A DNA stretch of 64,000 bases from Clostridia bacterium (GCA_017443295.1 JAFSNT010000230.1:1709-65708); one strand, 5' to 3'. Positions 4,055 through 42,851 are shown, numbered from the stretch's first letter. Numbers and translations: made by a program. The notes: generated from the sequence alone by a model not told the origin.

Positions 4055-4098
4055 CTGGGGGAAACCGCTCTTTGGCTACAAAGAGCGGTTTCCCCCAG
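4055..4098. repeat. perfect palindrome, 20-bp stem with 4-nt loop (REP-like)
   Basis: ctgggggaaaccgctctttg gcta caaagagcggtttcccccag. The arms are shared with 12681-12794. Confidence 0.9.
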
Positions 4099-4109: not shown

Positions 4110-6305
4110 TTAGATCAGGCCCAGCTCTTCCAGCTTATCCGCGCAGTCCTTGAGGTCGAACTTTTCCAGGGTCTCGCGGGTGGGGATGCCGGTTTCCTTG
4201 TTCCAGCCCATGGCCTCGTACCACATATCCAGGCTCTTTTCCCAGTCTTCCCGATCCAGCTTCACGGTGCCCTGCTCGAAGGGCTTGAAGTCCGGCTCCT
4301 TATCGAAGACCCAATCGGAGACCCGGTCATGATCCTTGCGCAGGTTGGTGCTGCCTAAGTTCAGCTTGAAGCTCACGGCGGTCATGACGCGGAGCAGCTG
4401 GCTGATGCGCTCGGAATCCCGTTCCTGATCGTCCCGGGTGTAGGTTTCGCCCAGCACAGCGGACATGTACTTGGCGTCCAGATCCAAATCGCCGATGTAA
4501 TCGCGCTTCTTGCTGGTGGCGATGGTCATGGGGTACATCCAGTTGCACAGGGTGGCGCTGTCGTGCCACTGCTTGCCGATGAAGGCCCACTTCGCCAGCT
4601 TGATCTTGTTCTCGTTGATGGGGGTGTAGTTCTTCTGGGCGTCGGTGCAGCCTTCGCCGAAGAAATGCTCCAGCACGGGCTTGATGATCTCGTTGTATGG
4701 CGCGCCGGAGGAGCAGAAGTTGATCAGGTGATGAATCATGCAGTCACGGTTGTACATCATGCTGTACAGCGTGCCCGCCTGCCAGCAGTTTTCGGGGCCG
4801 TGATGGCGGGGATAGCCGTTGTGGCCGATGTTGAAGTTCTTGCCGTTGACGAAATCGTAGAAGCTGACGCCCGCCACGTTCTTTTCGGGATCGTCCATGC
4901 CCCACTTTTCGTAGAGGCGGTAGGTGCCAAGGCCCAGATCGGAGAACAGGCCCTTGCCTAAGGAAATGCGGCGGTAGACCTCCACGCACCAGCGCGGGTC
5001 GCCGGATTCCATGAGATCCCAGGGGATTTCGTCCCATTCGCCGGGATAGAGGCGATCCGCCACGTCCTTGAGGACGCCGGTGGTATAGGCCATGTTGAAG
5101 TCTTCGTAGAGGTTTCCGTAGTTGCACCACACGCCGTAATCGTCCGCCGCCCGGGAACCGGCGCCGCCCAAGATCATCTTGGCGTCGTTCTCGTCCACGA
5201 AGCTGTGGGTGGACTTGACCTTGTTGCCGTCGGCGTCCTTATGGTCGGGGTACCATTCCAGCATCTTGATGATGGGCATGCAGGTGTTGGAAACGTGGGT
5301 GGGCAGGTCGTAATCCGCCAGGGGATCCATATCGTATTCGGTGTAGCAGCGCACGGGGCAGGAGGAGCAGCCGCCCTGCTTCACGGTGTACTTTTCGGCG
5401 ATTTCGCCAAAGTCGAACACGCCCTTGTTGCAGCGCAGGGCCGCCACGTTGATCTGGCCGCTGGGCTGCTCGCCCATGTCGATGGGACCCTTGGGGGCCT
5501 TGTCCCAGGTGATGCCGGGAGCGCCCTGCCAGCGGTTGTTGGTGGCCACGTATTCGCTCCAGCTCTGGGCGTGGCAGGGAACGGTGTGGTTGTTGTTGCC
5601 GCCCACCAGATCCTTGATCATGTAGTTGGACAGCAGGCGGACCTTCAGAGGTTCGGCGATCTTCACCGCGCCGGTGCCGCGAACCACCACGGCCTTAACC
5701 TTCTTGCTGCCCAGCAGCGCGCCGATGCCAGCGCCGCCGCTGTTGCCGAAGGAGGTGATGATGTTGCTCATGGGCACCAGGTTTTCACCGGCGGGGCCGA
5801 TGGAGGCCACGTCGAATTCCGGGCCGTTTTCCTTGGACAGGGTGGCGTTGGTTTCAAAGGTGCCCTTGCCCCACACGTGGGAAGCGTCCTCGATGGTCAC
5901 CTTATCGTCCTCGATTTTGATATAAACGGGCTTGCTGCTCTGGCCTTCCACGATCATGGCGTCATAACCCGCGTACTTGAAGGCGTGGGCGATATGGCCG
6001 CCCATGTGGGCGTCCACGATGGAATAGCCTTTGCTCCAGCAGGAAAGCAGGGTGATGTTCATGCGGCCGGAGCAGGGCACGCCGGAGGCCGTCAGGGGGC
6101 CGACGCCGAACACGCACTTGGCGTCTGGGCCAAGAGGATCGGTGTCCAGGGGCACTTCGTCCCAAATCACTTTATAGCCAAGGCCCATGCCGCCGATATA
6201 GGGCTTATACTTGGGCAGGGTGTCTTCCTTGGTAATCGCGCCGGTGGTCAGGTTCACGCGGACGATCGTACCCGCCCAGCCGTTGATGCCATTTTTCACA
6301 GACAT
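4110..6305 (-). CDS. aldehyde:ferredoxin oxidoreductase family W/Mo-pterin enzyme (YdhV-like, 731 aa)
   Basis: AOR N-terminal signature MSVKNGINGWAGTIVRVNLTTG..YIGGMGLG. FeS motif GGCSSCPVRC. No signal peptide of its own. Confidence 0.85.
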   Translation of the reverse strand: MSVKNGINGWAGTIVRVNLTTGAITKEDTLPKYKPYIGGMGLGYKVIWDEVPLDTDPLGPDAKCVFGVGPLTASGVPCSGRMNITLLSCWSKGYSIVDAHMGGHIAHAFKYAGYDAMIVEGQSSKPVYIKIEDDKVTIEDASHVWGKGTFETNATLSKENGPEFDVASIGPAGENLVPMSNIITSFGNSGGAGIGALLGSKKVKAVVVRGTGAVKIAEPLKVRLLSNYMIKDLVGGNNNHTVPCHAQSWSEYVATNNRWQGAPGITWDKAPKGPIDMGEQPSGQINVAALRCNKGVFDFGEIAEKYTVKQGGCSSCPVRCYTEYDMDPLADYDLPTHVSNTCMPIIKMLEWYPDHKDADGNKVKSTHSFVDENDAKMILGGAGSRAADDYGVWCNYGNLYEDFNMAYTTGVLKDVADRLYPGEWDEIPWDLMESGDPRWCVEVYRRISLGKGLFSDLGLGTYRLYEKWGMDDPEKNVAGVSFYDFVNGKNFNIGHNGYPRHHGPENCWQAGTLYSMMYNRDCMIHHLINFCSSGAPYNEIIKPVLEHFFGEGCTDAQKNYTPINENKIKLAKWAFIGKQWHDSATLCNWMYPMTIATSKKRDYIGDLDLDAKYMSAVLGETYTRDDQERDSERISQLLRVMTAVSFKLNLGSTNLRKDHDRVSDWVFDKEPDFKPFEQGTVKLDREDWEKSLDMWYEAMGWNKETGIPTRETLEKFDLKDCADKLEELGLI

Positions 6306-7874: not shown

Positions 7875-7955
7875 AGAGTTGAGAGTTGAAATTGTATGGC
7901 CTGATATATTCGGATTTTGAACGATTCGACTATCTAAATCTCAACTCTCAACTCT
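7875..7955. repeat. heptad-arm hairpin element A (AGAGTTG flavour, 15-bp perfect arms)
   Basis: agagttgagagttga at 7875-7889 is the exact reverse complement of 7941-7955. 51-nt AT-rich loop. Confidence 0.9.
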
Positions 7956-8436: not shown

Positions 8437-8534
8437 AAAAAGTGGAAATTGGAAAGTGAAAAGTGAAAATTTGAACAGCCGAATGTAAGGGCAAAATAAA
8501 TCTTCACTTTCCACTTTTAACTTTTCACTTTTTT
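8437..8534. repeat. heptad-arm hairpin element B (AAAAGTG/GAAAGTG flavour, ~5 heptads per arm)
   Basis: Left arm 8437-8471 and right arm 8501-8534 are imperfectly complementary. The right arm touches the stop codon of the GntR gene. Confidence 0.85.
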
Positions 8535-13834: not shown

Positions 13835-13949
13835 GGAAAAGTGAAAAGTGGAGAGTGAAAAGTGAAAATTTGAATAGAAAATGCCTTGTGTCTGCCGATT
13901 ATTTTCGGCCATATCTATTTCCACTTTCCACTTTTCACTTTCCACTTTC
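13835..13949. repeat. heptad-arm hairpin element C (AAAAGTG/GAGAGTG flavour)
   Basis: Left arm 13835-13871, right arm 13917-13949. Same flavour as B, and the loop starts with the same tttgaaNag. Confidence 0.85.
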
Positions 13950-14048: not shown

Positions 14049-15497
14049 ATGAAGCGGGGATGGGGGATCCGGCTGATAGAGCTGATGGCGGCGGCGGTGC
14101 TGATGCTGTCCGTCCTGTTCCCTGTTGCCCTGGCGGACGAATACGATAAGAATTATCCCGAGCTGCTGGCCGAAGGCCACCTGACCGCCTCCTCGGTCAT
14201 CCTGATCGAAGCGGAAACGGATCAGGTGATTTTTGAAAAGAACCCGGATCAGCGCATGTACCCCGCCTCCACCACCAAGATTCTGACCGTGTGGCTGGCC
14301 CTGACCCTGGGCGAATCCTTGGAAAACGGCCTGGAAACCAAAATCACCCTGAGCGAAAACGCGGTGAACCTGGCCCCGGACGAATCCTCCGCCAAGTTCG
14401 CGGCGGGAGAAAACGTCAGGCTTATCGACCTGTGCTACGCCGCCATCCTCGTATCGGGCAACGACGCCGCCACCGCCATCGCAGAGGGCCTGGGCGGCTC
14501 GGTGGAATCCTACGCGGGCATGATGAACGAAGCGGCCTATGCTCTGGGCTGTTACAGCACCCATTTCGTGAACGCCAACGGCCTGCACGACGAAAACCAT
14601 TATACCACCGCCCGGGATCTGGCCACCCTGTCCCGCATTGCCATGGAGAACGAAGACTTCCGCATGATCGTCAGCGCCCCGGAATACAAGCTGCCCAAGG
14701 ACAACATTTACCGCGCCCGTTCCCTGATCAACGGCAACAATTTCGTGGCCGAATCCAAGGACGAAAACAAAAAAAGCCGCTATTATCCCGATTCCACCGG
14801 CATCAAAACCGGCACCACCTCGGCGGCGGGCAACTGTCTGGTGGCCTCCGCCACCCGGGACGGGGTGAGCCTGATCGCCGTGGTGCTGGGCGCCACCTCG
14901 GACACCAGCCGCTACGAGGACGCCATCAAGCTGATGGATTACGGCTTTTCCCAGTTTTTGAGTACCAGCATCGCCGAAATCTACCTGCGCAATCCCCGAA
15001 TCGTGGATATTCGGGGCTTCGATCTGGACGACCCCCAGGTGGGGCGGCTGACCCTGGAAATCCGCCTGCAATCCACCGGCGTGTCCGACGTGATCGTGAC
15101 CAGCCGGGAAGAAATGGAATACTGGGTGCAGAATTTTTCCAGCTACACCGTCACTGAATTTACCCGGGAGTTGAAAGCCCCCATCTCCCAGGGCGAGGTC
15201 ATGGGCACCCTGACCTATTACGGCGACGCCGGCCAGCCGGTGGTATACGATCTGGTGGCCTCCCGCTCCATCGCCGCCCGGGAACAGCTTTTCCCCTCGC
15301 TGGAGCAGCTCATTTCCGAGGCGGAAAACGACCCCAACCCCTTCCCCCGCATCACCGTGGAGCTGGTGGTGCTGTACCTGATTCTGCCCGTCCTTTCCGT
15401 GATCGTCGCGGTGCGCCTGCTGAAAGCCCTGTTCCGCCTCGGCCGAAAACGCAAAAAAGTAAAGGCCTTCAAGCCCACCAGCCGGTATTACCGGTAA
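14049..15497 (+). CDS. D-alanyl-D-alanine carboxypeptidase (peptidase S11, PBP5-type) with C-terminal membrane anchor
   Basis: Signal/TM at the N-terminus, SxxK motif PASTTKILT, SGN motif VSGNDAA, and a C-terminal TM (VVLYLILPVLSVIVAV). Confidence 0.85.
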   Translation: MKRGWGIRLIELMAAAVLMLSVLFPVALADEYDKNYPELLAEGHLTASSVILIEAETDQVIFEKNPDQRMYPASTTKILTVWLALTLGESLENGLETKITLSENAVNLAPDESSAKFAAGENVRLIDLCYAAILVSGNDAATAIAEGLGGSVESYAGMMNEAAYALGCYSTHFVNANGLHDENHYTTARDLATLSRIAMENEDFRMIVSAPEYKLPKDNIYRARSLINGNNFVAESKDENKKSRYYPDSTGIKTGTTSAAGNCLVASATRDGVSLIAVVLGATSDTSRYEDAIKLMDYGFSQFLSTSIAEIYLRNPRIVDIRGFDLDDPQVGRLTLEIRLQSTGVSDVIVTSREEMEYWVQNFSSYTVTEFTRELKAPISQGEVMGTLTYYGDAGQPVVYDLVASRSIAAREQLFPSLEQLISEAENDPNPFPRITVELVVLYLILPVLSVIVAVRLLKALFRLGRKRKKVKAFKPTSRYYR

Positions 15498-15510
15498 AAG
15501 GCATATATAT

Positions 15511-15561
15511 GGGGGCTTCTTCAGCCCCCAAACCCCCGAACCAGGGAGGTGACCTCCCTGG
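15511..15561. repeat. twin GC-rich hairpins (REP-like)
   Basis: gggggcttcttcagccccc and ccagggaggtgacctccctgg. The reverse complement resembles 60316-60370. Confidence 0.8.
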
Positions 15562-15586
15562 ACCCTCACTCATGTCGTAAATTACC

Positions 15587-15707
15587 GCTCCTGGGCAGGC
15601 GGCAAAGCCGCCTACGGTGCGCGAAGCGCACCTGAAAAACGAGGATATGACCAGGAAAAAGCTCGCTTTTTCCCTGGCATATGCCTCGTTTTTCTTTGCC
15701 CAGGAGC
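15587..15707. repeat. cloverleaf-like composite element, copy 1 (outer stem plus 3 hairpins)
   Basis: Outer stem gctcctgggca/tgcccaggagc. Hairpins ggcggcaaagccgcc, ggtgcgcgaagcgcacc and the long hairpin containing ccaggaaaaagctcgctttttccctgg. Confidence 0.8.
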
Positions 15708-15912
15708 TTGCAATATTTCTTTTCCAAACAGGCGCAAACTGTTTGTTTTCGTGCGTTTGCTGTTCGCCTGATGGGGCGCAGGGGGCGAAGTCCCCTGCCG
15801 CACAGACGAACCGCCGATGACCGCCTGTGGCGGAAATTTCATCGGCGGTGAGATCAGCCGAAAGGGAGCAATCTCCCCATGAAGGGGAGTTGCGACCTTT
15901 GAGGCTGCGGAA

Positions 15913-15935
15913 TCAGGGGCCGCGGAGGCCCCTGA
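15913..15935. repeat. GGGGCCGCGGAGGCCCC hairpin
   Basis: tcaggggccgcggaggcccctga. Same core as 37397-37421 and 43080-43104. Confidence 0.85.
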
Positions 15936-15941
15936 CCTCAT

Positions 15942-17936
15942 TTACCACAACGCCTTTTCCGCGTCTTTACCATCGGCAAAGGGGCCGGGCAGGGCGGAAA
16001 GGCCCCGGTGATTGCCGAAATAGTCCCGATCGAACAGGATATCGGTGCCGTCGGGGTTCTCGAAGCGCTGTTCCGGCTCGAACGCCTTGCCCAGGGTGTC
16101 GCTGGAAACCAGGCCCACCCGGAAATCCTTGATGATGTCGTAGACGTTGGTGTTCAGGCAGGGCTTCCCGTCCTTTTCGGTCAGTTCCACGGTAGCGGGC
16201 AGTTTTTCGTCCGCCACGAAGCCCTGATCCTCATGCTTGCTGACGGTGGCCCCGGCCAAATAGGCGTTGCCATGCACCCTCACAGGCAGATGACCGAAGT
16301 GGTACTGCGCCAGCGCGCCCATATCCGGCTCCCGATCCATCATGAAATGGGAAATCCACTCATCGTAGGAGGGGAAAATGTCCATGGGCGCGGTGCCCAC
16401 CCGTTCATAATCGCTGGCCGTGGGCTGGCGGTCGGGGTCGGTGATGGGATAGTGCTGCACGAAAATGTTGTTGTAAATGCGGTCGTCGCCGTGGAGGATG
16501 GTCATGAACCCGGCCACCTCCGTGCGGTGGCGGATGTGGTAGGGGGTATAGCGGGGTTCCCGCTGACCGTTCACCACGCTGTCCACGCCGGAATTCACCA
16601 GGCCGAAGCCGCCGAGCATCAGGTTATGCACGCAGGCCAGGCCCTCGCTGGGCATGACCACGGAGACCTTGGAAAGCAGCACGTTGTTGTCGATCAAGGT
16701 CGGGCCGTGGCCCACCTCGATGAACACGTCGCAGTTGAACATGGCCCCCTGGGCCTTGCTCCGGCCTTCGGGCATCATGTTATCGTGCATCAGGTTCTGG
16801 GAAATGCGCGCGCCCTGGGCCTGCCAGTCGCACCACACGCCCATGATGCAGTGGTGAATGTGGTTGCGGCGGATGGTCACGTCGATGGCGGCGTGCAGCT
16901 TGATCCCGGCGGTTTCCGCACCGCCTAACTGCTGGGAATTGCAGACGTGGTGAATGTGGCAGTCCTCAATGGTGGAGAACACACCGCCCATGCGGCCCAC
17001 GATGCCAGTCTGCTCGCAATGGTGTACCTCGCAGCGGCGGATGATGTGGCCGCCCACCTTTTCCTTGAGCCAGCCGTGATACTGGCCCCGGCACACGGCG
17101 TCCCGCTCCATCTGGGTGGGGGATTTCACGTGCTTGGTGTAGAAGTACATATCGTTTTCCGGGTCGAGATATTTGCCCAGGGAAATGCCGCAGCACTTGC
17201 TGTTGCTGATCTCGCAGTCCTCGATGATCCAGCCACGGCTCCAGTGGGGGCCGATCATGCCGTCCTGGTACGCGGCGGGCGGCGCCCAGGTGGTGGCCGC
17301 CTTGTCGATTTTAAAACCGCTGACGGTGATATAGCCCACGCCGGTTTTGTCCGGCATGAAACAGTTGCGCCGCACGGTGATTTCCACCTTTTCCCGGTTG
17401 GGGTCCTTGCCCTGGAAATTGGCGTACAATACGGTTTCGCCGCCGTCCTGCTCGGTGTACCAGAGGTACTTGGCTTCCTCCTGGTTCCAGGCGCAGGGGT
17501 CGGGCTTTCCGGCCATACATTCTTCCAAACTGACGGTTTCATACAGCATCCGGTCGTTCAGGAACACCGCGCCGGTATGCCGCACGGTGGGGGCGAAGTA
17601 CCAGTCGCCGCAGACCATAGTAGTGTAAGGATTGTAGTTGGCAAACACGCCGTTGTCCACCCGGTTCACCCACACGGTGCCCTGATAGGGCTTCCAGCCG
17701 GTGAGCGTTTCCGCGCCGGTGATCACCGCGCCTAAGGGCTGTTCCGAACGGTACACGATGCGCATTTCTTCCGTGCCGGCGTTCTGGGGATTCACATATT
17801 CCCGGTAAATGCCTGGGGCCACGATGATTTCATCCCCGGGCAGGGCAATTTGCGCCGCGTCGTTGATGCGGCGGAAGGGGGTTTCCTTGCTGCCGTTGCC
17901 CTCTTTGGGCGCGGCGGTGTTGACATAATAAAGCAT
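15942..17936 (-). CDS. right-handed parallel beta-helix (pectin-lyase fold) protein, function unknown
   Basis: 664 aa with AAAGGAG RBS and no signal peptide. The N-terminus GSKETPFRRINDAAQIALPGDEIIVAPGIYRE is typical of DUF1565/beta-helix proteins. Repeated Hxx/IxN beta-helix turns. Confidence 0.55.
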   Translation of the reverse strand: MLYYVNTAAPKEGNGSKETPFRRINDAAQIALPGDEIIVAPGIYREYVNPQNAGTEEMRIVYRSEQPLGAVITGAETLTGWKPYQGTVWVNRVDNGVFANYNPYTTMVCGDWYFAPTVRHTGAVFLNDRMLYETVSLEECMAGKPDPCAWNQEEAKYLWYTEQDGGETVLYANFQGKDPNREKVEITVRRNCFMPDKTGVGYITVSGFKIDKAATTWAPPAAYQDGMIGPHWSRGWIIEDCEISNSKCCGISLGKYLDPENDMYFYTKHVKSPTQMERDAVCRGQYHGWLKEKVGGHIIRRCEVHHCEQTGIVGRMGGVFSTIEDCHIHHVCNSQQLGGAETAGIKLHAAIDVTIRRNHIHHCIMGVWCDWQAQGARISQNLMHDNMMPEGRSKAQGAMFNCDVFIEVGHGPTLIDNNVLLSKVSVVMPSEGLACVHNLMLGGFGLVNSGVDSVVNGQREPRYTPYHIRHRTEVAGFMTILHGDDRIYNNIFVQHYPITDPDRQPTASDYERVGTAPMDIFPSYDEWISHFMMDREPDMGALAQYHFGHLPVRVHGNAYLAGATVSKHEDQGFVADEKLPATVELTEKDGKPCLNTNVYDIIKDFRVGLVSSDTLGKAFEPEQRFENPDGTDILFDRDYFGNHRGLSALPGPFADGKDAEKALW

Positions 17937-18848: not shown

Positions 18849-18958
18849 AGAGTTGAGAGTTAAGAGTTGAGAGTTGAGATCATATAGTGGTCATCATGGA
18901 AGAATCGCATTTGATGCACTATATACATCTCAACTCTCCGCTCTCAACTCTCAACTCT
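18849..18958. repeat. heptad-arm hairpin element D (AGAGTTG flavour, 32-nt arms)
   Basis: agagttgagagttaagagttgagagttgagat versus the reverse complement of 18927-18958. Mismatches occur only in the central heptad. 46-nt loop. Confidence 0.9.
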
Positions 18959-22376: not shown

Positions 22377-22476
22377 CAGAGTACAGAGTGCAGAGTTCAG
22401 ATTATTTAGTCAATATCATCAGCGTACCTGCAATAATGTAAACTATCTTCATCTGAACTCTGTACTCTGAACTCTC
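22377..22476. repeat. heptad-arm hairpin element E (CAGAGTN flavour, 26-nt arms)
   Basis: Left arm 22377-22402 versus right arm 22451-22476, 23/26 complementary. Wedged between convergent genes. Confidence 0.9.
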
Positions 22477-23243: not shown

Positions 23244-25844
23244 TTGAGGAGCATAGAAAAAGGACTCGTCTACACCAACGACAAATGCATCGGCTGCAAC
23301 AAGTGCATCCGCGCGTGCAGCTGCATCGGGGCCTGCGTATCCACGGAGCCGGACGAAAACGGTAATTCAAGGATCATGGTGGACGGCAGCCTCTGCGTGG
23401 CCTGCGGCGCCTGCTTTGATATCTGCGAGCATAACGCCCGCGATTTTGTGGACGATACCGAACGGTTCTTTGACGATCTGAAAAAAGGCGAAAAGATTTC
23501 GCTGCTGGTTGCTCCCGCCTTCCCCGCCAATTATCCGGATACCTGCGCCAGGGTTTTGGGCAAGCTGAAAGAATTGGGCGTGAACCGCATCATCAGCGTT
23601 TCCTTCGGCGCGGACATCACCACCTGGGGATATATCAATTACATTCAGCAGCATGATTTTTCAGGCGGCATTTCCCAGCCCTGCCCGGCGGTGGTGGGCT
23701 ATATCGAGCGGTATTTGCCGGAGCTGCTGCCCAAGCTCTTCCCCGTGCAAAGCCCCCTCATGTGCGCCGCTATTTACGCGAAAAAGGAATTAGGCGTCAC
23801 GGATAAGCTGGCCTTTATCAGCCCGTGCATCGCCAAAAAGTTAGAAATCGACGACCCCAACAATCACGGGTACGTCAGCTATAACGTGACCTTCAAGCAC
23901 CTGATGGATTACGCCGAAAAATTCAATTTGTACGGGGAACCCTGCCGGGATGAAATGGAATACGGCCTCGGCTCCATCTATCCCATGCCGGGGGGGCTCA
24001 AGGAAAACGTGCTGTGGCTCCTGGGCCAGGACGCGTTCATCCGTCAGGTGGAGGGCGAAAAAAGGCTGTTCCACTACCTGGAAAAAAACAAGGAGCTGCT
24101 GCGGGACGGAAAGACGCCCTTCCTGTTCGTGGACGCGCTCAACTGCGAAAAGGGCTGCATCTGCGGCACGGGCACCGATATGGCCCTGGCCGTCACCGAT
24201 CATTCGCTGTACCATCTGCACGACATCAAGGAGGCCGTGGAAAAGGATACGGCCGGCAGCGCCTGGTCCCGGAACGCCGCGCCGGAGGAAAGGCTGGCCT
24301 GCCTCAACAAACAGTTTGAACACCTGAACCTGGAAGACTATCTGCGCTCCTATACGGACCGGTCGGCCCAATGCACCCTGCGCATTCCCGATCCCGAAGA
24401 GCTGGAAGCCATCTTCCTGGAAATGAACAAGACCGACGAAGCCTCCCGGCACATCAACTGCTCCTGCTGCGGCTATGACACCTGCACGGAAATGGCGACG
24501 GCGATCCACAACGGCTTCAATCACAAGGAAAACTGCATCCATTACTTGAAGGACATGTATGTGAAGAAGGCCGCCGAAACCGACATCATGACCGGCCTGC
24601 CCAACGCCGCCGGGTTCAGAACCTTCGTCAACAGAATGTGGGCGGCGGGAAAGCTCACGTCCTACAACGCGTTCTACCTGAACGTAAAGAGCTTCGGCCT
24701 GATCAATAAAAAGTACGGAAAGCAGGAGGCGGACCATATCATCATCCGCTTCGCGGAGCTGCTTTTATCGTATACCGACGATGACGAGTGCGCGGGCCGC
24801 CTGTCCGGCGACACGTTCATCCTCATGGTGCATAAAGAAAAGACCGACGCCGTGCTGAAGCTGACCTCCGGCGTGGATATCCGCGCCTCCCTGAACGGCC
24901 AGGAAGAAATGGCGACCCTGCAGGCCATCGCGGGCTGCCTGGATATCGACGACGACGAAATGGACAGCGAGGGGATCATCGGCAGATGCTCCACGGCGCT
25001 GAACGTGGCAAGATACGACAAGCACGCGCCCTATTTATTCTCAACGCCTGAAATGCACAAAAAGGCCATTCATCAAAAGCAAATTCTTTCCGTGTTCGCC
25101 GAGGCTTTGGAAAAGGGCGAGTTCCAGCCCTACTATCAGCCTAAGGTCAACACCAAGACCAAGACCCTGGCCGGCGCGGAAGCCCTGGTGCGCTGGATCA
25201 GAGACGGAAAGACCATCACCCCCGGCGAATTTATTCCGATTCTGGAGACCGGCGACAGCATTTGCATGCTGGATTTCTATATTTTCGAGCAGGTGTGCAA
25301 GGATATCCGCCGGTGGATGGACGCGGGCATCGAGCCGGTGCGCGTGTCGACGAATTTCTCCCGCAAAAACTTGGCCGATCCCGAGTTTTCCCAAAAAATC
25401 AGGAAGATCCTGACCGCCTATAACATCCCCAAGCAGCTGATCGAGGTGGAAATCACCGAAACCATGAGCGAGGAAGACAACGAGCGGCTGAGAAGGTTCA
25501 TCAGCGATATGCACGATTCCTCCATCGCCATGGCCATCGACGACTTTGGAACGGGGTATTCTTCTTTGAATATCCTGCGGGATTTCTCCGCCGACGTGCT
25601 GAAATTGGATAAATCCTTCATTGACGGCCACACGGGCACCAAACGCGACAGCGTGGTGGTTTCCAACGTGGCAAAAATGGCCAACGAGCTGAACATGAGC
25701 GTGATCACCGAGGGCGTGGAGAACTGGGATCAGGTCAACTTCCTGAAAAGCGTCAATATTGATATGGTGCAGGGCTTCCTGTTCGACAAACCCCTCCCGA
25801 AGGGAGATTTTGAACAGCGGCTGAGAAATAAAACGTATGACTGA
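23244..25844 (+). CDS. [FeFe]-hydrogenase-like FeS sensor domain fused to degenerate GGDEF and intact EAL (putative c-di-GMP phosphodiesterase)
   Basis: TTG start 8 nt after GAGGAG. Two CxxCxxCxxxC ferredoxin motifs. Hydrogenase large-subunit-like motifs SQPCPAV, SPCIAKKLE and NCEKGCICGTG. CSCCGYDTC FeS domain. GGDEF slot reads RLSGDTF. EAL-domain motifs AEALVRW, EVEITE, DDFGTGYSSL, KLDKSF, EGVE and QGF. Confidence 0.85.
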   Translation: MRSIEKGLVYTNDKCIGCNKCIRACSCIGACVSTEPDENGNSRIMVDGSLCVACGACFDICEHNARDFVDDTERFFDDLKKGEKISLLVAPAFPANYPDTCARVLGKLKELGVNRIISVSFGADITTWGYINYIQQHDFSGGISQPCPAVVGYIERYLPELLPKLFPVQSPLMCAAIYAKKELGVTDKLAFISPCIAKKLEIDDPNNHGYVSYNVTFKHLMDYAEKFNLYGEPCRDEMEYGLGSIYPMPGGLKENVLWLLGQDAFIRQVEGEKRLFHYLEKNKELLRDGKTPFLFVDALNCEKGCICGTGTDMALAVTDHSLYHLHDIKEAVEKDTAGSAWSRNAAPEERLACLNKQFEHLNLEDYLRSYTDRSAQCTLRIPDPEELEAIFLEMNKTDEASRHINCSCCGYDTCTEMATAIHNGFNHKENCIHYLKDMYVKKAAETDIMTGLPNAAGFRTFVNRMWAAGKLTSYNAFYLNVKSFGLINKKYGKQEADHIIIRFAELLLSYTDDDECAGRLSGDTFILMVHKEKTDAVLKLTSGVDIRASLNGQEEMATLQAIAGCLDIDDDEMDSEGIIGRCSTALNVARYDKHAPYLFSTPEMHKKAIHQKQILSVFAEALEKGEFQPYYQPKVNTKTKTLAGAEALVRWIRDGKTITPGEFIPILETGDSICMLDFYIFEQVCKDIRRWMDAGIEPVRVSTNFSRKNLADPEFSQKIRKILTAYNIPKQLIEVEITETMSEEDNERLRRFISDMHDSSIAMAIDDFGTGYSSLNILRDFSADVLKLDKSFIDGHTGTKRDSVVVSNVAKMANELNMSVITEGVENWDQVNFLKSVNIDMVQGFLFDKPLPKGDFEQRLRNKTYD

Positions 25845-25857
25845 TTGAGGAAAAAGC

Positions 25858-27360
25858 ATGGACGGCCGAATGAAGATCAGAGATACGCTGCGGCACGTGA
25901 GCGTGAAATCCATTGTATTGGCGATCATCGTGATTCTGTTCGCCAATATCACCGCCGCCTTTATTGGAAACAGCTTTTACGCGACGGAGAAAGAAACCCT
26001 GCGGCAGCAATGCGAGCTGAACGCCAAGGATTCCGCCAGGGAATACGACCATATTCTTCTGACGCGGGTGAACATCGTCACGCTGGTGGGGCGCACGGTG
26101 GATAGCATGCTGTCTTCCGGCACGGGCAGCAAAAAGATCGAAAAGTACCTGGTGGAGCAGACGAACAACATCGCCGCCACCCTGGATCCCACCACCACCG
26201 GCCTGTACGGCTGGGTGGGCGGCGTGTATCTCGACGGCGCGGGCTGGGTGCCTGAAGACGATTATGTGCCCACCGAACGGCCCTGGTATATCCAGACCAT
26301 GGCATCCGACCAGGAAATCACCTTTGTGGAACCCTACCTGGATTTGCAGACGTATACGGTGATGATGACTGTGTCCGATCTTTTGAGCGACGGGCAAAGC
26401 GTGATCGCCATGAACGTGAGCCTCGACCCCTTGCAGGCCATTGTGGAGCGCATCGCCGCCGCCACGGAGGGCGGCCAGGCCCTCGTGCTGGACGGCAGCG
26501 GCATCGTGGTGGCCCATTCCGATAAGAATCAGCTGGGCCGGAACTATCTGAACGAACCGGAGAGCCTCGGCGGCGCCGTGGCACGCAAAATCCTTGCGGA
26601 CGGGGAAAAGCAGTTTGATCTCAACGCCAAAGAGGGAAATTTCTCCGTTTATGTGGAACAGCTGGAAGGCAGCTGGTACAGCGTCAGCCTGATCAACGCC
26701 GACGTTTGGTACCGCCCCCTGCGATACACCATTCTTGCGTTTTCCGCCATTGTGGCGCTGGTCAGTCTTTTCCTGGTGGCGGTGTTTCTCCGCCTCAGCG
26801 CCAAAAACGTGGCGCTGCAGGCGCTTCATACGCGCATCGACCAGGAGGAGAAGCGGGGCGAGGCCCTGCAGGCGCTGTCCGAAACGGACCGCATGACCGG
26901 CCTGCTGGACCGCGTCAGCGGCCAAAACAAGGTGAACGAGCTGCTGGCCTCCGGCAGCGGCGGCATGTTCCTGGAGCTGGATATCGACCATTTCAAAACC
27001 ATCAACGATACCTACGGGCATCAGACGGGCGATACCGTCATCATCGCCGTGGCCGATTCCATGCGCGGCATTTTCCGTTCCAACGATTTATGCATGCGGC
27101 TGGGCGGCGACGAGTTCGGCGTTTTCGCGGTGGGCATTGTGAAGCGGGAAATGGCCGAGGCCATTATCCGCCGGCTGTTTGAAAGGCTCGAAAAAACGGA
27201 GATACCGGAGTTGCGCGGGGAAAAAATCGCCGTCAGCGTGGGCGTAGCCCTGCACGCGGGAGAAAACGCGGCCTCCTTTGACGCGCTCTACGCCCGGGCG
27301 GACACCGCTATGTATGCAAGCAAAAAGATACCCGGCAACAGCATGACCTTCAGCGGCTGA
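25858..27360 (+). CDS. membrane diguanylate cyclase with extracytoplasmic Cache-like sensor domain
   Basis: TM1, then a ~270-aa periplasmic-type domain, then TM2, then GGDEF with RLGGDEF and an I-site RSND five residues upstream. Confidence 0.85.
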   Translation: MDGRMKIRDTLRHVSVKSIVLAIIVILFANITAAFIGNSFYATEKETLRQQCELNAKDSAREYDHILLTRVNIVTLVGRTVDSMLSSGTGSKKIEKYLVEQTNNIAATLDPTTTGLYGWVGGVYLDGAGWVPEDDYVPTERPWYIQTMASDQEITFVEPYLDLQTYTVMMTVSDLLSDGQSVIAMNVSLDPLQAIVERIAAATEGGQALVLDGSGIVVAHSDKNQLGRNYLNEPESLGGAVARKILADGEKQFDLNAKEGNFSVYVEQLEGSWYSVSLINADVWYRPLRYTILAFSAIVALVSLFLVAVFLRLSAKNVALQALHTRIDQEEKRGEALQALSETDRMTGLLDRVSGQNKVNELLASGSGGMFLELDIDHFKTINDTYGHQTGDTVIIAVADSMRGIFRSNDLCMRLGGDEFGVFAVGIVKREMAEAIIRRLFERLEKTEIPELRGEKIAVSVGVALHAGENAASFDALYARADTAMYASKKIPGNSMTFSG

Positions 27361-27376
27361 CCGAAAGGAGACGCCC

Positions 27377-28606
27377 ATGCAGTATAAAACCGTGACCATC
27401 GTGATCCTGTCCGCCGTATTCCTGTACAACATGCTGCTCCGGCTGATCGAATACCGGTCGGCCCAAAATCCCATTCCCCTGAACGTGCTGGACGTGTACG
27501 ACCTGGACACCTACAAAAAGTGGCGGGCCTATCACGGGGAAAAGTGCCGCTTAGGGGCGTTCAGCGCCCTGGCGGGATTCATGGTGGATCTCATTCTGAT
27601 CCTGCCCAACCTCTACGCCGCCTTTGCCCGTCTGTTTCCCGATACGGCCTTTTGGCAGATGCTGGCCGTGATCCTGTTATCCATGGCGGGCCTCGTGACG
27701 GAGCTGCCCATCGAATACTACGACACCATGGTCATCGAGGAAAAGTACGGCTTCAACCGTTCCACCAAGAAAACCTTCTGGCTGGATCAATTGAAGGGTC
27801 TGCTGATCAATCTGGCCCTGGTGATCGCGGTAAGCTCCCTGCTGCTGGGGGCGCACACCTGGCTTGGGGACTGGCTGATCGTGGTCTTCGCCGGGGCCAT
27901 GACGCTTTTGACCCTGGGTATTTCCTTCCTCTATCCCTTTTTCAGCCGGATCTTCAACAAGTTCACGCCCCTGGAGGACGGGGAGCTGAAGGACAAGCTC
28001 ACCGGCCTGCTGGAAAAGCACGGCTTCAAGGTGCGCGCCATTCAGGTAATGGACGCCTCCCGGCGCTCCACCAAGTCCAACGCCTATTTTACGGGCTTCG
28101 GCAAAATGAAAACCATCGTGCTGTACGACAATATGGTGCAGGCCATGACGACGGATGAAATCTGCGCGGTGTTCGCCCATGAAATGGGCCACGGCCTGCA
28201 TAAGGACACCCTGAAAAGCCAAATCTTTTCCTTTGTGCAAATGCTTTTCATAGGCGCGCTGGCCTGGCTGACCCTGCGCACGCCGGAAGTTTTCACCGCC
28301 TTCGGCTTTCCGGGTGTGAATTACGGCTTTGCCTTCTTCCTGATCACCAGCGTGGAATTTGCCCTGATCGCCCCGCTCTTCGGCCTGCTGGTGAACGGGC
28401 TTTCCCGGCGGGCGGAATACCGGGCGGACGCCCAGGCCGTTCAGGAGGGCTACGGCGAAGCGCTGATTTCGGGCCTGAAAAAGCTGAGGCGGGAAAACTT
28501 TGGGGAATTGGCCCCCTCTCCCCTGCTGGTGAAGCTGGAATATTCCCATCCCACCCTGAGCCAGCGCATTGCGGCCATTGAAAAATTGGGAGGTAAAGCG
28601 GAATGA
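27377..28606 (+). CDS. M48-family (Ste24/HtpX-like) membrane metalloprotease
   Basis: AAAGGAG RBS, multi-TM N-terminal half, HEMGH zinc motif (VFAHEMGHGLHKD). Confidence 0.8.
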   Translation: MQYKTVTIVILSAVFLYNMLLRLIEYRSAQNPIPLNVLDVYDLDTYKKWRAYHGEKCRLGAFSALAGFMVDLILILPNLYAAFARLFPDTAFWQMLAVILLSMAGLVTELPIEYYDTMVIEEKYGFNRSTKKTFWLDQLKGLLINLALVIAVSSLLLGAHTWLGDWLIVVFAGAMTLLTLGISFLYPFFSRIFNKFTPLEDGELKDKLTGLLEKHGFKVRAIQVMDASRRSTKSNAYFTGFGKMKTIVLYDNMVQAMTTDEICAVFAHEMGHGLHKDTLKSQIFSFVQMLFIGALAWLTLRTPEVFTAFGFPGVNYGFAFFLITSVEFALIAPLFGLLVNGLSRRAEYRADAQAVQEGYGEALISGLKKLRRENFGELAPSPLLVKLEYSHPTLSQRIAAIEKLGGKAE

Positions 28607-29541
28607 CCGTGGATTACAAGCTTTTGAACGAGCAAATGGAAGCCCTGGCCCAAGCGGAGGGCTGGTACGTGTCCCTGTTCGCCAACGCCTCGGCCCTGCT
28701 GTGGGAAATGCTGCCCGATATCAACTGGGCCGGGTTTTATACTGTGGAAGGCCCCGATCTGGTGCTGGGTCCCTTCCACGGCAAAGTGGCCTGCATTCGC
28801 ATCCCCCGGGAAAAGGGCGTATGCGGCGCGGCCCTGCGGGAAGGACGCACCATGCTGGTGCCGGACGTACACGCTTTCCCCGGCCACATCGCCTGCGACA
28901 GCGCATCCCGTTCCGAACTCGTGATTCCCCTGCGGGATGGGCGGGGCCGGGTGGCCGCCGTGCTGGACATGGACAGCCCCATGCTCAACCGTTTTTCCGA
29001 TCAGGACCGGCAAGGGCTGGAAGCCTTCGCCCATATCATCGAAAAAGCCATGAAAGGACTGTCCCCCATGGAAAAGACCGTTTATTTGGCGGGCGGCTGC
29101 TTCTGGGGCTGCCAGAAATATTTTGACCTGATGGACGGCGTGATCGAAACGGAGGTGGGCTACGCCAACGGCGAAGCCGAAAACCCCACCTACGAGCAGG
29201 TGAAGCACGGGGCGGGCCACGCGGAAACCGTTCGGGTAGTATATGATCCCGCTAAGCTTCCCCTGCGGGAGCTGCTGGAACGCTATTTCCAGGTGATCGA
29301 CCCCACCGCCGTCAATCACCAGGGGGAGGATTTCGGCGTTCAGTACCGCACCGGCATTTATTTCGCCGACCCCGCCGACGCCCCCACCGTCGCCGCCGCC
29401 CTTCACGACCTGGCCCGCCGCTATGACAAGCCCCTGGCGGTGGAAAACCTGCCCTTGCAGAACTTCTATTCGGCGGAGGAATACCACCAGAAATACTTGG
29501 AAAAGCATCCGGGCGGCTACTGCCACATCCATTTTGACTGA
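28603..29541 (+). CDS. msrA: fusion of GAF-domain free methionine-(R)-sulfoxide reductase (fRMsr/YebR-like) and peptide methionine-(S)-sulfoxide reductase MsrA
   Basis: ATGA overlap with the M48 gene. The N-terminal half is a YebR-like GAF domain (..GFYTVEGPDLVLGPFHGKVACIRIPREKGVCG..). The C-terminal half is MsrA with GGCFWGCQ. Confidence 0.8.
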   Translation: MTVDYKLLNEQMEALAQAEGWYVSLFANASALLWEMLPDINWAGFYTVEGPDLVLGPFHGKVACIRIPREKGVCGAALREGRTMLVPDVHAFPGHIACDSASRSELVIPLRDGRGRVAAVLDMDSPMLNRFSDQDRQGLEAFAHIIEKAMKGLSPMEKTVYLAGGCFWGCQKYFDLMDGVIETEVGYANGEAENPTYEQVKHGAGHAETVRVVYDPAKLPLRELLERYFQVIDPTAVNHQGEDFGVQYRTGIYFADPADAPTVAAALHDLARRYDKPLAVENLPLQNFYSAEEYHQKYLEKHPGGYCHIHFD

Positions 29542-29553
29542 TTTCTTTCTTGG

Positions 29554-29582
29554 TTGACAAACGGCCGCGGACAAAATATAAT
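29554..29582 (+). promoter_or_regulatory. sigma-A type promoter upstream of the third c-di-GMP gene
   Basis: TTGACA, 17 nt, TATAAT. Confidence 0.55.
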
Positions 29583-29655
29583 GATTCCGTCGGGGTTTAA
29601 TTCGTTTTTTCAATATGCAAGCAGCGCATCCCACGCAGCGAGGGAGGTTACGCCC

Positions 29656-31056
29656 ATGAAGCACCACAAGAGGCCCCTGAACCGCAGCATCACCGTGGGA
29701 TGCGTTCTGTTTATCCTCGCCCTGTGCGTGCTGCTGAGCTTCGCCAATCTGACGATGTATAAAAACTACGTTTATGAGGATTACCGCAATTATATCGACG
29801 ATATCCTGAACTATACCCTGTCCGAAATCGACGGGGACGATCTGAAAGCCTGCATCGAAACGGGCGAGGAAAGCGAGCGGTACAAGAAAACCCTGCTTTT
29901 CATGGATCATATGATGGATCATTTCGACGATATCCATTATTTCTACGCCATCCTGCCCCTGAATACCGAGGAAACGGGCAACGTGATGAGCGTGCTTTCG
30001 GCGGAGCGGTATCAAGACCGGTATATCGACACGGAAGGAAATCTCTATTTGGGCTGGATCTCGGACGACGAATTCGACGCGGCCACCGCCGCCCAGTTTT
30101 TTGAGATCATGAAGGGCAAGGGCATCGTTTACTTTGAGGAAGCCACGGAATGGGGCATTGATTATACCGGCGCCGTGCCCATCCGGGACGCCAAGGGAAA
30201 CAGCGTGGCCGTGCTGGCGGTGGATATTGATATTTCCTTCATCAACGGCATGGTTTGGCAGTACGCCGCCGTGAATATCCTGGTGATCCTGCTGGCGGGC
30301 GCGGTGTTCATCGCCATTTTCCTGTTCTGGTCCCGCAGGAACATCACCCAGCCCATCCTGCGCCTGGAGGAAAGCGCCGTGGGCTTTGCGGACCGCAGCC
30401 ACGGCCAGCGGGACGTGAACGCCCTGACCTTCGACGCGCCTCCCATGAAAACGGACAACGAAATCAAATCCCTGTCCGACGCGGTGGTGAAAATGACCGA
30501 GGACATGCGGGATTACGTGACCGACATCATCACCGCCGAGAAAAAAGCCGCCAACATGCAGGAGCTGGCCAACCGGGACGCCCTCACCGGCATCCGCAAC
30601 AAAACGGCCTACGACAACGAAATGAAGCGCGTGGCCGTGAAGTTAGAGGACGGGATTGCCCAGGTGGGCCTGGCCATCGTGGATCTGAACTTCCTGAAAA
30701 AAATCAACGATACTTACGGCCACGACATGGGCAATATCGCCATCCGCAAGCTCAGCCGCATGGTGTGCGTGATCTTCGACCACTCCCCCGTGTTCCGCAT
30801 CGGCGGCGACGAATTCGCCGTGATCCTGCGCGGCACCGATTTCGACCATTACGGCGAGCTGGAAGCCCGCTTTAACGCGGAAATGGCCGCCCTGGCCCGG
30901 GATGATTCCCTGCCGCCCTGGGAAAAAGTGTCGGCGGCCATCGGCGCGGCGTTCTATGACCCGGAGCTGGACGACGGCGTGGACAGTCTGTTTAAGCGGG
31001 CAGACCATGTGATGTACGACCGCAAGAAGGAAATGAAAGCAACCCGAAAAGATTGA
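29656..31056 (+). CDS. membrane diguanylate cyclase (two TM helices flanking a sensor domain, GGDEF)
   Basis: ORF trimmed to the ATG at 29656 (AGGGAGG RBS). MKHHKRPLNRSITVGCVLFILALCVLL. RIGGDEF active site with no RxxD I-site. Confidence 0.85.
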   Translation: MKHHKRPLNRSITVGCVLFILALCVLLSFANLTMYKNYVYEDYRNYIDDILNYTLSEIDGDDLKACIETGEESERYKKTLLFMDHMMDHFDDIHYFYAILPLNTEETGNVMSVLSAERYQDRYIDTEGNLYLGWISDDEFDAATAAQFFEIMKGKGIVYFEEATEWGIDYTGAVPIRDAKGNSVAVLAVDIDISFINGMVWQYAAVNILVILLAGAVFIAIFLFWSRRNITQPILRLEESAVGFADRSHGQRDVNALTFDAPPMKTDNEIKSLSDAVVKMTEDMRDYVTDIITAEKKAANMQELANRDALTGIRNKTAYDNEMKRVAVKLEDGIAQVGLAIVDLNFLKKINDTYGHDMGNIAIRKLSRMVCVIFDHSPVFRIGGDEFAVILRGTDFDHYGELEARFNAEMAALARDDSLPPWEKVSAAIGAAFYDPELDDGVDSLFKRADHVMYDRKKEMKATRKD

Positions 31057-33990: not shown

Positions 33991-34100
33991 GAAGGTAGGA
34001 GGTAGGAAGTAGGAGGTAGGAGGTTTTATTATGTTCATAAAAGTGCAGGGTTTCTTCCTTTTGTGGACTATATATGCTTCCTACCTCCTACTTCCTACCT
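33991..34100. repeat. heptad-arm hairpin element F (GGTAGGA/AGTAGGA flavour)
   Basis: aggtaggaagtaggaggtaggagg (34000-34023) versus the reverse complement of 34077-34100, 23/24. Confidence 0.9.
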
Positions 34101-36390: not shown

Positions 36391-36972
36391 ATGGAGCAGG
36401 AAAAAAAGGAAGACAGGCGCGTGCGCCGCACCAAAAAGCTGCTGACCCAGGCCCTGACCCAGCTTTTGCAGGAAAAGCAGGCCAAGGAAATCACGGTCAA
36501 GGAGCTGACCGAGCTGGCGGACATGAACCGGGGCACCTTTTACCTATACTATAAAGACATTTTCGATATGCTGGAAAAAATCGAGGACAGCTTATTTGAA
36601 GCCCTGGACGCCATTGTGGCCCGCCACGAGGAAGAAGCCTTTTCCGCGAAAACCAAGCCCATGCTGCTGGACTTGTTCACCTTCGTTCAGGAAAACCAGG
36701 AAATGTGCCGGGTGCTGCTCAGCGCCAACGGCGATATGAATTTCCTGCACCGGCTGAACGAGGTGGTGCGGGAAAAATGCCGCAGCGTCTGGCTGGCCCT
36801 GCGCAAAGGCCGGGACGACGACGCTTTTGACTACCATTACAGCTTCGTCGTCTTCGGCTGCGCCGGGCTGATCCGCGCCTGGGTGAACCGGGGCTGCCCC
36901 GAAACGGCGGCGGAAATGGCTGAGCTGGCTGACCGCATGATCCAGCGCGGCAGCCTGACGGATATGGAATAA
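36391..36972 (+). CDS. TetR/AcrR-family transcriptional regulator
   Basis: MEQEKKEDRRVRRTKKLLTQALTQLLQEKQAKEITVKELTELADMNRGTFYLYY is a TetR HTH. Divergent from the MMPL gene. Confidence 0.85.
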   Translation: MEQEKKEDRRVRRTKKLLTQALTQLLQEKQAKEITVKELTELADMNRGTFYLYYKDIFDMLEKIEDSLFEALDAIVARHEEEAFSAKTKPMLLDLFTFVQENQEMCRVLLSANGDMNFLHRLNEVVREKCRSVWLALRKGRDDDAFDYHYSFVVFGCAGLIRAWVNRGCPETAAEMAELADRMIQRGSLTDME

Positions 36973-37158
36973 AACCTCCGGGGGCACGGCTCACGCACGA
37001 ATGAGAAATTGAAATATGACGGGGATACGCTGGGCGCTCCGCGCGCCCAGACCTGCGTCAGGGGCGTGACGCCCCTGAACCCCCACCTGGCGAAGCAGCT
37101 TGCAAGACTATACCGAACAAGCGCCGCCTGCCGCGCTGGGGTTTACGAAAGCATGACG

Positions 37159-37284
37159 GCTTCTGGCCCAAGAAAGCCGGGAAAATCCCAGGGAAAAAGC
37201 TCGCTTTTTCCTCGGGATTATTCCCTGGCTTTCCCCGGATGCTTCGCATCCGGGTTGGCCGCCAAAGGCGGCCGGGCCAGAAGC
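37159..37284. repeat. cloverleaf-like composite element, copy 2 (inverted relative to copy 3)
   Basis: Outer stem gcttctggccc/gggccagaagc. The same three hairpin modules appear in reversed order. Confidence 0.85.
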
Positions 37285-37396
37285 ACAAGACCGTCAAGTT
37301 TTGCTATCCTTTTCATGCAACAGCGGGAACCATGTTGTCTCTACCCATCGAGTAATTTCCGCAGGAGAAGGTGCAGGGGATCATCCCCTGCCGCCG

Positions 37397-42829: not shown

Positions 42830-42851
42830 ATCATTAAAACTATCTGCTTAT

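Follow-up and report, generated by a model that had tools for sequence, protein, structure and literature searches.

A composite palindromic repeat with a four-way-junction core in uncultured ruminant and gut Clostridia

Introduction

The DNA analysed here (the window) is a stretch of 64,000 nucleotides from a Clostridia bacterium (GCA_017443295.1 JAFSNT010000230.1:1709-65708), and the element in question is a block of GC-rich hairpins at 15510-15935, lying between convergent genes for a DacC-like carboxypeptidase and a GH120-like protein. An initial annotation, made from the sequence alone, had described the block as a composite akin to the repetitive extragenic palindromes (REP) and bacterial interspersed mosaic elements (BIME) of Enterobacteria, with a cloverleaf-like module present in three copies. 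The block is a worn copy of a repeat unit of ~420-450 nt, at the centre of which lies a four-way-junction core of 121-130 nt (the cloverleaf), and the unit recurs in related genomes with its stems kept by compensatory change.

Extragenic palindromic repeats are best understood in Proteobacteria, as REP/BIME and as REPIN (hairpin-forming REP doublets) with their REP-associated tyrosine transposases (RAYT). To our knowledge, much less is known of them in Firmicutes, and nothing in uncultured rumen or gut Clostridia; literature searches found no description of the present family.

Results

Structure of the block

The block opens 13 nt past the stop codon of the dacC-like gene (15495-15497). Its parts are listed below; the cloverleaf was scored with a covariance model (CM) built from the three window copies.

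15510-15530, plus strand: hairpin A of the 5' arm (TGGGGGCTTCTTCAGCCCCCA), perfect 8-bp stem, within a match to the A-B arm profile at 15506-15561
15541-15561, plus strand: hairpin B of the 5' arm (CCAGGGAGGTGACCTCCCTGG), 9-bp stem
15587-15707, plus strand: cloverleaf copy 1, 11-bp closing stem (gctcctgggca/tgcccaggagc) round three hairpins, CM 102.3 bits
15597-15613, 15616-15632 and ~15634-15694, plus strand: hairpin 1, hairpin 2 and long hairpin 3 of cloverleaf copy 1
15725-15775, plus strand: remnant of the C' region of the 3' arm (aacaggcgcaaactgtttgtttt ... ttcgcctgatgg), aligning with the C' region of other copies
15778-15798, plus strand: hairpin B' of the 3' arm (GCAGGGGGCGAAGTCCCCTGC)
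15802-15912, plus strand: module E, a two-hairpin repeat of 111 nt between B' and A', the most abundant module
15913-15935, plus strand: hairpin A' of the 3' arm (TCAGGGGCCGCGGAGGCCCCTGA), 6 nt from the GH120-like stop codon (15942-15944, minus strand)

All the hairpins that the initial annotation had placed here are present, namely the twin hairpins, the outer stem with its three hairpins, the hairpin with a T-run and the terminal hairpin at 15913-15935. The T-run hairpin was located by a consensus scan at 15725-15745, where it is terminator-like and falls inside the C' remnant; no promoter-like site was seen in the block. The fold of three hairpins proposed for 15587-15707 was borne out, with a minimum free energy of -80.8 kcal/mol for RNA and -50 for single-stranded DNA. 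DNA parameters gave the same fold, and none of 200 dinucleotide shuffles folded as well (z ~ -10 as RNA and as DNA). A tRNA- or tmRNA-like cloverleaf was considered and rejected, as the arm lengths are 11, 7, 9 and ~30 bp and ARAGORN reported no tRNA or tmRNA in the window.

Most of hairpin C of the 5' arm and the linker are gone from block 1, its cloverleaf is divergent and module E is extra. Cloverleaf copy 1 is the most divergent of the three in the window (61-65% identity to the other two), and the differences from copies 2 and 3 are compensatory in every helix; in hairpin 2 (GGTGCGCGAAGCGCACC) and the closing stem the sequence is wholly unlike the canonical (CCGGATGCAAAGCATCCGG) and the fold is unchanged. 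The view of the block as a composite of recurring palindromic modules therefore holds, 15802-15912 being a separate inserted module, which occupies the identical position in two other loci (L066 and L074), with compensatory changes in its stems.

Further copies in the window

Three four-way-junction modules of 121-126 nt, all with z ~ -10, were found at 15587-15707 (plus), 37159-37284 (inverted) and 42852-42976 (plus). These were the only strong CM matches in the window (102-129 bits), the next-best being their own reverse strands. The recurrence of the modules at a second and a third block, and the alignment of 15727-15800 with 42999-43075, were as first annotated, with the correction that copy 2 lies in the opposite orientation to copies 1 and 3. 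The features outside block 1 are as follows.

37000-37444, minus strand: copy 2, canonical full element, CM 127.7 bits
37400-37420 and 37373-37391, minus strand: hairpins A and B of the 5' arm of copy 2, then the C region
37159-37284, minus strand: cloverleaf of copy 2
37058-37078 and 37030-37050, minus strand: hairpins B' and A' of the 3' arm of copy 2, with the C' region before them, plus outer flanks
42852-42976, plus strand: cloverleaf of copy 3, CM 128.6 bits, and by fold
42977-43104, plus strand: 3' arm of copy 3, with linker, C' region, B' (43054-43074) and A' (43084-43104)
60252-60379, minus strand: solo arm without cloverleaf, with A (60352-60370), B (60324-60344) and C region

In copy 2 the arms form a pair of inverted repeats of 32 nt (37022-37053 and 37397-37428) with 81% complementarity. 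Copy 3 has no 5' arm, and its cloverleaf begins 22 nt past the stop codon of an Xre-type helix-turn-helix (HTH) open reading frame (ORF) at 42599-42829, while its A' ends 7 nt from the polC stop codon (43112). The solo arm follows an ABC ATPase gene (60386-61399, minus strand) at a distance of 15 nt, and in the window each A hairpin has a stop codon 6-75 nt before it. The 17-mer GGGGCCGCGGAGGCCCC has exactly three occurrences, one in each block (15916, 37402 and 43086); the search for it lists seven matches, reverse-strand self-matches included, with 1.1 expected.

The genes on either side of the three copies are those of an ordinary high-GC Firmicute chromosome, encoding an S11 D-Ala-D-Ala carboxypeptidase and a GH120/beta-helix protein at block 1, TetR and MetQ at copy 2, and the Xre-type HTH protein and PolC at copy 3. 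Between blocks 1 and 2 a cluster of cyclic di-GMP turnover genes was observed (23244-31056). It encodes three GGDEF proteins and an Fe-hydrogenase-like/GGDEF/EAL fusion, and genes for an M48 peptidase and a GAF-MsrA fusion lie in between. The stretch at 40570-42830 is low in GC and gene-poor, with a GNAT gene on one side and cloverleaf copy 3 on the other. The last ~30 residues of the GNAT ORF (40570-41235, minus strand; DANLAHLERITSQIDAGEAKLASHELMEE) are identical to the C-terminus of a small ORF found 3' of polC in loci L159 and L163, which reads as a putative RelB/DinJ-type antitoxin with a toxin-like ORF behind it; going by these predicted products, this suggests that the region may be a rearranged toxin-antitoxin remnant.

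Anatomy of the repeat unit

The order A-B-C-linker-cloverleaf-linker-C'-B'-A' is constant over ~400 nt, and the linkers are conserved. The first half runs GGGAACGC and A, ACCCC, B, ACCCTC, C (with a variable loop), linker and cloverleaf; the second runs cloverleaf, linker, C', B' and A' with GCGTTCCC. The conserved flanks of the cloverleaf measure ~130-160 nt per side. The 3' arm always accompanies the cloverleaf and the 5' arm usually does, being absent in copy 3 and in copies of L006 and RGIG6780. A-B arms nearly always belong to a full element, the exceptions being the solo arm at 60252-60379 and solo A-B pairs in L163, and matches to the arm profile come as plus/minus pairs ~400 nt apart. 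As hairpin 2 was never found outside a cloverleaf, a reading of the cloverleaf as a nest of independent REPs was rejected, and the loose cluster of such units first envisaged gives way to a single long unit with the cloverleaf at its centre.

Hairpins A and B (17-21 nt, GC-rich) are present in every element. In an alignment of 60+ arms the sequence before A is GGGAACGC, ACGAGGC or ACGGGGC, and A and B are followed by ACCCC and ACCCTC respectively; no GTAG or CGTC tag was found in this alignment. Both stems covary, that of B showing GC, AU, CG and UA at four pairs, and the loop polarity of both is kept (B loop TGA).

In five copies the arms are inverted repeats of 25-63 nt, 73-81% complementary, at a spacing of 280-410 nt, and A and A' within one copy are often of different subtypes. 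Some lineages have a further 25-30 nt of common inverted sequence beyond the arms. Beyond the arms, several copies have flanks that repeat each other in inverted and not in direct orientation, and the ends of the unit are not sharp. One long rod, with the 5' arm pairing with the 3' arm, was considered and rejected: the best arm-to-arm helix was 69.3% paired against 67.5% in shuffles, with no excess covariation, and RNAalifold favours local hairpins. The unit has no coding capacity, being overlapped by spurious ORFs only.

Other repeats were also observed. A second, unrelated palindrome family is represented at 4055-4098 (CTGGGGGAAACCGCTCTTTGGCTACAAAGAGCGGTTTCCCCCAG, a perfect 20-bp stem), with a longer relative (CTGGGGGAAACC...GGTTTCCCCCAG round further hairpins) 3' of polC in L159 at ~440-540 and a fragment in L072 at ~5380-5440. 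Intergenic spacers also hold tracts with a period of 7 nt, at 8490-8531, 13907-13948, 18917-18958, 7929-7955, 22442-22468, 33991-34043 and 56273-56325, some of them directly against a start codon. Their minus-strand sequence is AAAGTGA-AAAGTTA-AAAGTGG... or AGAGTTG-AGAGTTG-AGA, and Shine-Dalgarno-like (GTAGGAG)n runs, which end in GGAGGTTTTATTATG or GGAGGTTTTATCTTG, occur on the plus strand. The TAGGCAA/TAGGAGG tracts seen 3' of polC in L119 and L140 (below) are similar.

Recurrence and covariation across genomes

Copies were collected by a degenerate-pattern scan of one genome per species (GTDB), giving at least 115 stretches, which were then scored with the CM. Among the matches listed, at least 38 further full-length copies scored 87-128 bits, all of them in 12 species-level metagenome-assembled genomes (MAGs) of ruminant/gut Clostridia, and none of ~70 chance pattern matches in Actinobacteria, Proteobacteria and other phyla, which served as a negative control, matched the model. 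The MAGs are labelled Clostridia, Clostridiales, Christensenellaceae and Oscillospiraceae (RUG, RGIG, red deer and others) and come from cattle, goat, sheep, buffalo, deer and other gut samples. Further copies were seen in L159, L206 and L196.

When 41 copies were aligned, 95.4% of cells were paired and 28 of the 53 pairs had changed on both sides, a level reached by none of 500 shuffles; with partners slid, pairing was only 39-59%. The scan pattern required exact motifs in helices 1 and 2, so the sample is biased to intact copies and the conservation of these two helices is partly ascertainment; the compensatory changes lie mostly in the free helices 3-6. Mean identity of the cloverleaf was 83% within a MAG (range 61-97%) and 77% between MAGs, and for 25 of the 41 copies the nearest relative was in another MAG. 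The family is therefore old and diverse and not a recent burst.

These results refute the proposal that the hairpins are chance GC-rich palindromes, or ordinary intrinsic terminators, unrelated to each other, to which we now give almost no weight. The initial annotation had itself entered the reservation of random GC-rich palindromes. The genome is GC-rich with many hairpins, some of which, such as 37445-37479 and 50433-50468, are indeed ordinary terminators. Set against chance are model scores of 87-129 bits in one clade only with blank GC-rich controls, exact recurrences of a 17-mer and a 20-mer where 1.1 and 0.01 are expected, the preserved order of modules and the 45-160x excess in depth described below.

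An origin in phages or plasmids was also rejected: blastn against 50,697 phage and 72,556 plasmid records was blank, and one of 2.9 million viral contigs carried a copy. That contig (L196) has a cloverleaf at 1963-2087 beside a capsid-like ORF (weak PF25209 and PF13252 matches), so the repeat can sit in (pro)phage DNA. A Pfam scan found no transposase, integrase, Y1_Tnp or RAYT among the 49 window proteins, a tblastn search of the window and 196 loci with a RAYT-like probe yielded no match at E below 0.1, and no parent insertion sequence (IS) with the same termini was found in the collected loci.

Inversion of the cloverleaf loops

The loop of hairpin 2 exists in two reverse-complementary states in near-equal numbers (CAAAG 11, CTTTG 12; CGAAG 4, CTTCG 5), as does the tip of hairpin 3 (GCTCGC 11, GCGAGC 11). 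The state of one loop is unrelated to that of the other and to the orientation of the copy as a whole, and a single genome can hold both states; A and B, by contrast, have loops that do not flip. Since point mutation cannot invert 3-4 bases, the flips point to recombination or strand switching between the arms of a perfect inverted repeat. The loop flip-flop shows hairpin dynamics at the DNA level, and loops that flip ~1:1 hold no strand-specific information.

Copy number and transcription

DNA and RNA depths were taken as contig depths, in which strand is not resolved. In four gut metagenomes holding this genome the canonical cloverleaf stood at 45-110x its flanking genes and module E at 100-160x its flanks, while the A-B region reached 5-8x for the subtype of copy 1 and up to ~20-60x for that of copy 2. 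The excess in depth, together with three copies in 64 kb, gives a copy number of the order of 100 per genome, the depth-based figure being an upper bound to which related co-resident species contribute.

In metatranscriptome contigs module E was at 50-100x the depth of genes and the cloverleaf at 10-25x. As the RNA ratios do not exceed the DNA ratios, the peaks reflect copy number and not special expression, and a 'highly expressed small RNA' at 15776-15912, where RNA is at 50-100x but DNA at 100-160x, was rejected. Individual RNA contigs extend from dacC across A-B and on into the cloverleaf (record 15322-15643), or from GH120 into A', a pattern that fits read-through. At copy 2, on the side of metQ, the RNA contigs end at 37481, beside a separate terminator-like hairpin (37445-37479), and DNA contigs pass through this point.

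A structured non-coding RNA, trans-acting or serving as a guide or scaffold, might be encoded in many copies by the cloverleaf or by the unit as a whole; we regard this as very unlikely. The fold is very stable, covaries over several helices and is present in metatranscriptome contigs, and in the orientation of the model G-U pairs exceed A-C mismatches slightly (73 vs 39); this excess rests on three columns, and the assignment of a selected strand from it was dropped. The RNA ratios given above, the missing promoter-like site in block 1, the occurrence of both orientations relative to neighbouring genes and the freely flipping loops all speak against an RNA gene.

Comparison with Rfam points the same way. 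No family, including BSR0739, ROOL, GOLLD, HEARO and Clostridiales-2, reached its gathering threshold in the whole window. The best scores below threshold were 32.8 bits for BSR0739 (gathering score 191), obtained by copy 2 with E 9e-6 in a 181-nt search, and 17.9 for Clostridiales-2 (58.6). Neither was reproduced in 8 other copies (E <=0.1), and membership of either family was rejected. BSR0739 (RF02613) is a small RNA of Brucella (PMC4365724). It shares with copy 2 the order of branches, a closing stem followed by a long hairpin and two short ones. It comes from an unrelated phylum, and the resemblance is structural and probably due to chance.

Gene context and turnover

The initial annotation had placed all copies at convergent 3'-3' junctions, which is true of the three in the window; of 23 wider copies with callable context ~9-10 are convergent, 12 tandem and 2 divergent. 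The same counts dispose of the idea that each A-B-C arm is a 3' untranslated region (UTR) element of its own gene, always directly after a stop codon, which holds for the window only. The element avoids promoter-side (divergent) spacers, yet it is not confined to 3'-3' junctions, and some copies lie upstream of gene starts. Orientation to flanking transcription showed no preference: of 35 left-hand genes 24 were co-directional, and of 26 right-hand genes 15 were convergent. When 67 flanks from the 41 copies were compared, copies from different MAGs had no orthologous neighbours in common.

Relatives of the window strain lack the element at orthologous junctions. The 3' end of polC was fetched from 80 metagenome loci, and in all 80 no cloverleaf adjoins the gene, one locus (L159) having a copy ~840 nt downstream. 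In relatives with 94-97% identity over the PolC C-terminus this place is taken in each case by some other palindromic element: a solo A-B pair in L163, a long palindrome of a different family in L159, plain hairpins in L116-L118, or another palindromic element flanked by TAGGCAA/TAGGAGG heptamer tracts (L119 and L140). As a separate observation, in L124 (PolC 88% identical) a GC-rich unit of ~100 nt (...GGCTTCCCCTTGAGGGGAAGCTGTCGCCGCAGGCGACTGATGAGGTGG...) occurs at least six times in tandem 3' of polC, at 1545-2400.

The dacC/GH120 junction of a relative (L204/L205; DacC 90%, GH120 95% identical) is also convergent and measures 99 nt. Within it lie a textbook dacC terminator (14-bp stem and TTTTAT) and, 6 nt from the stop codon of GH120, a hairpin of the A' type (TCAGGGGCCTCCGCGGAGGCCCCTGA); A' is the only module of block 1 present, with A-B, cloverleaf, C', B' and E absent. 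Because the window is without this dacC terminator, the spacer was replaced and not simply interrupted.

Turnover was also evident among close strains. Variants in the same metagenomes have block 1 without E (15801 joined to 15913 via GGGG) or without B' and E, and one variant strain has 2756 nt in place of exactly 36970-37448 (copy 2). In same-strain assemblies block 1 is identical to the window, and four independent short-read assemblies of the same strain (L200-L203) break inside it, 171-392 nt past the dacC stop codon.

These data bear on the possibility that the repeat is a host cis-acting 3'-end element, whether a bidirectional terminator or insulator, a protector of mRNA 3' ends or a site for a nucleoid protein or topoisomerase. 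Roles of this kind have been proposed for the REP/BIME of E. coli. The structure would then be kept by host selection at each locus, with spread by recombination and not by transposition. The close spacing of window A hairpins to stop codons fits such a role, as do the position of most copies downstream of at least one gene, the A'-type hairpin kept 6 nt from the GH120 stop even in the relative without other modules, the RNA contigs running from dacC and GH120 into the element, and the pairing of 95% still found in divergent old copies. Weighing the other way, close relatives have an ordinary hairpin and T-run terminator in place of the repeat at the same junctions, no conserved U-tract follows the hairpins, the metQ side of copy 2 has a terminator-like hairpin of its own at which RNA contigs stop before the element, orientation shows no preference and some copies precede genes. 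Since close relatives do without the element at the same junctions, any host 3'-end role would be dispensable, and we consider this explanation unlikely, although compatible with the replicator proposed below.

Discussion

The block is best explained, at a probability that we put at about 0.55, as a degenerate copy of a high-copy composite palindromic repeat of ~420-450 nt that is a non-autonomous replicator of the REPIN/MITE/BOX kind in uncultured ruminant/gut Clostridia (MITE, miniature inverted-repeat transposable element). As a whole the family is most likely a genomic hitch-hiker of REP/MITE type rather than a gene. Under this explanation a structure-recognising recombinase or transposase, its gene lying elsewhere, would copy or move the element as DNA, probably in the form of a folded single strand, and the element would settle where it does least harm, downstream of genes and beside existing GC-rich 3' hairpins, to be carried passively within read-through transcripts. 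Stems might be kept because only foldable copies propagate or because unfoldable ones are purged, whereas loops would be free, strand switching inside the palindromes turning them over. The unit also holds further small palindromic modules, such as E, nested within it.

Several observations weigh against a replicator. No transposase or RAYT-like gene, the partner that the initial annotation had suggested looking for, was found in the window or in ~1.25 Mb of collected loci. Neither a target-site duplication nor a clean filled/empty pair was found at the polC junction, the joints in DNA runs or the dacC/GH120 ortholog, the last being a case of spacer replacement and not of simple insertion. Old and diverse copies that keep their stems could equally mean host-level selection at each locus, and the sample leans towards intact copies through the exact helix 1 and 2 motifs that the scan needed.

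A more specific and rather improbable version is that of a Firmicute counterpart of the REPIN-RAYT symbiosis, whose Holliday junction-like core would be read by a junction- or hairpin-specific, possibly domesticated, recombinase. The cloverleaf would then act as folded single-stranded DNA or an extruded cruciform, the A-B arms as sequence-specific handles, and the ~1:1 loop flip-flop would be the footprint of hairpin-primed or strand-switch copying. Relatedly, the symmetric unit may be a bidirectional insulator between genes that is exploited by the host.

The family is large, strongly structured and old, with copies ~20% divergent and 95% of base pairs kept, and forms a natural data set on what maintains such structures, selfish copying or host use. 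It is also a lead to a candidate structure-specific recombinase. In practical terms, ~100 copies with nested modules break short-read assemblies, same-strain contigs ending inside the block, and yield spurious 'highly expressed' peaks in metatranscriptomes; the repeats further mark hypervariable intergenic sites that are possibly useful for strain typing.

Comparison with known repeat systems

REP/BIME of Enterobacteria (surveyed in PMC3733652) are GC-rich extragenic palindromes in hundreds of copies, with REP units of 20-40 nt that bear a GTAG (or CGTC) tag. A further character of BIME is that they bind IHF, DNA gyrase or Pol I. The first likening of the block to these was right in that the present family is high-copy, GC-rich and intergenic, mostly downstream of genes, and forms mosaic blocks with a conserved module order; the two further share mostly convergent or co-directional spacers, often a few nt from stop codons, and transcription within 3' UTRs. 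It differs in having no tag, a unit of ~420-450 nt, a four-way-junction core never found in separate pieces, a host range in Firmicutes/Clostridia and no RAYT found in the window or the collected loci. Its units are unrelated to the Y and Z REPs and the L, S, l and r motifs of E. coli BIME, and the likeness is one of analogy and not of membership.

REPINs are doublets of ~100 nt that form one long hairpin and have a cognate RAYT partner, an HUH/Y1 transposase whose gene is usually single-copy and flanked by the repeats (PMC3116915, PMC3337134). Hairpins A and B are, like REPs, short GC-rich extragenic palindromes in high copy number. Common to both systems are inverted hairpin repeats, diverged copies whose hairpins are kept by compensatory change, long persistence in a lineage and, as suggested here, a probable single-stranded, structure-dependent mode of copying. 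In the present family, unlike REPINs, each arm is ~120 nt, the arms are kept apart by the 125-nt cloverleaf and linkers, A and A' often differ in subtype, and the inverted arms have no covariation support for pairing with each other.

Bacterial MITEs that fold as RNA include Correia, ERIC/IRU and RUP elements (reviewed in PMC10969869 and PMC3184786). The unit resembles them in being under ~600 bp, non-coding, high-copy, intergenic and co-transcribed, in having terminal inverted repeats and in its presence or absence between close strains. Defined termini, a target-site duplication and the usual parent IS, which characterise MITEs, were not found for this family, and MITE copies are usually near-identical bursts, whereas copies here are 61-97% identical within one genome.

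The descriptive likeness extends to BOX elements. BOX of Streptococcus pneumoniae is a modular boxA-boxB(n)-boxC repeat in about 100+ copies. Both are modular intergenic composites of Firmicutes, non-coding and with strong predicted structure, in which partly complementary end modules enclose variable central ones, and for neither is a mobilising enzyme known. The present family has a four-way-junction core, which BOX lacks, and other module sizes and order; no sequence relationship is expected, and its hosts are high-GC gut Clostridia in contrast to the low-GC streptococci that carry BOX. The family is a previously undescribed and unusually large variant of the REP/BIME/BOX/MITE-like mosaic repeats.

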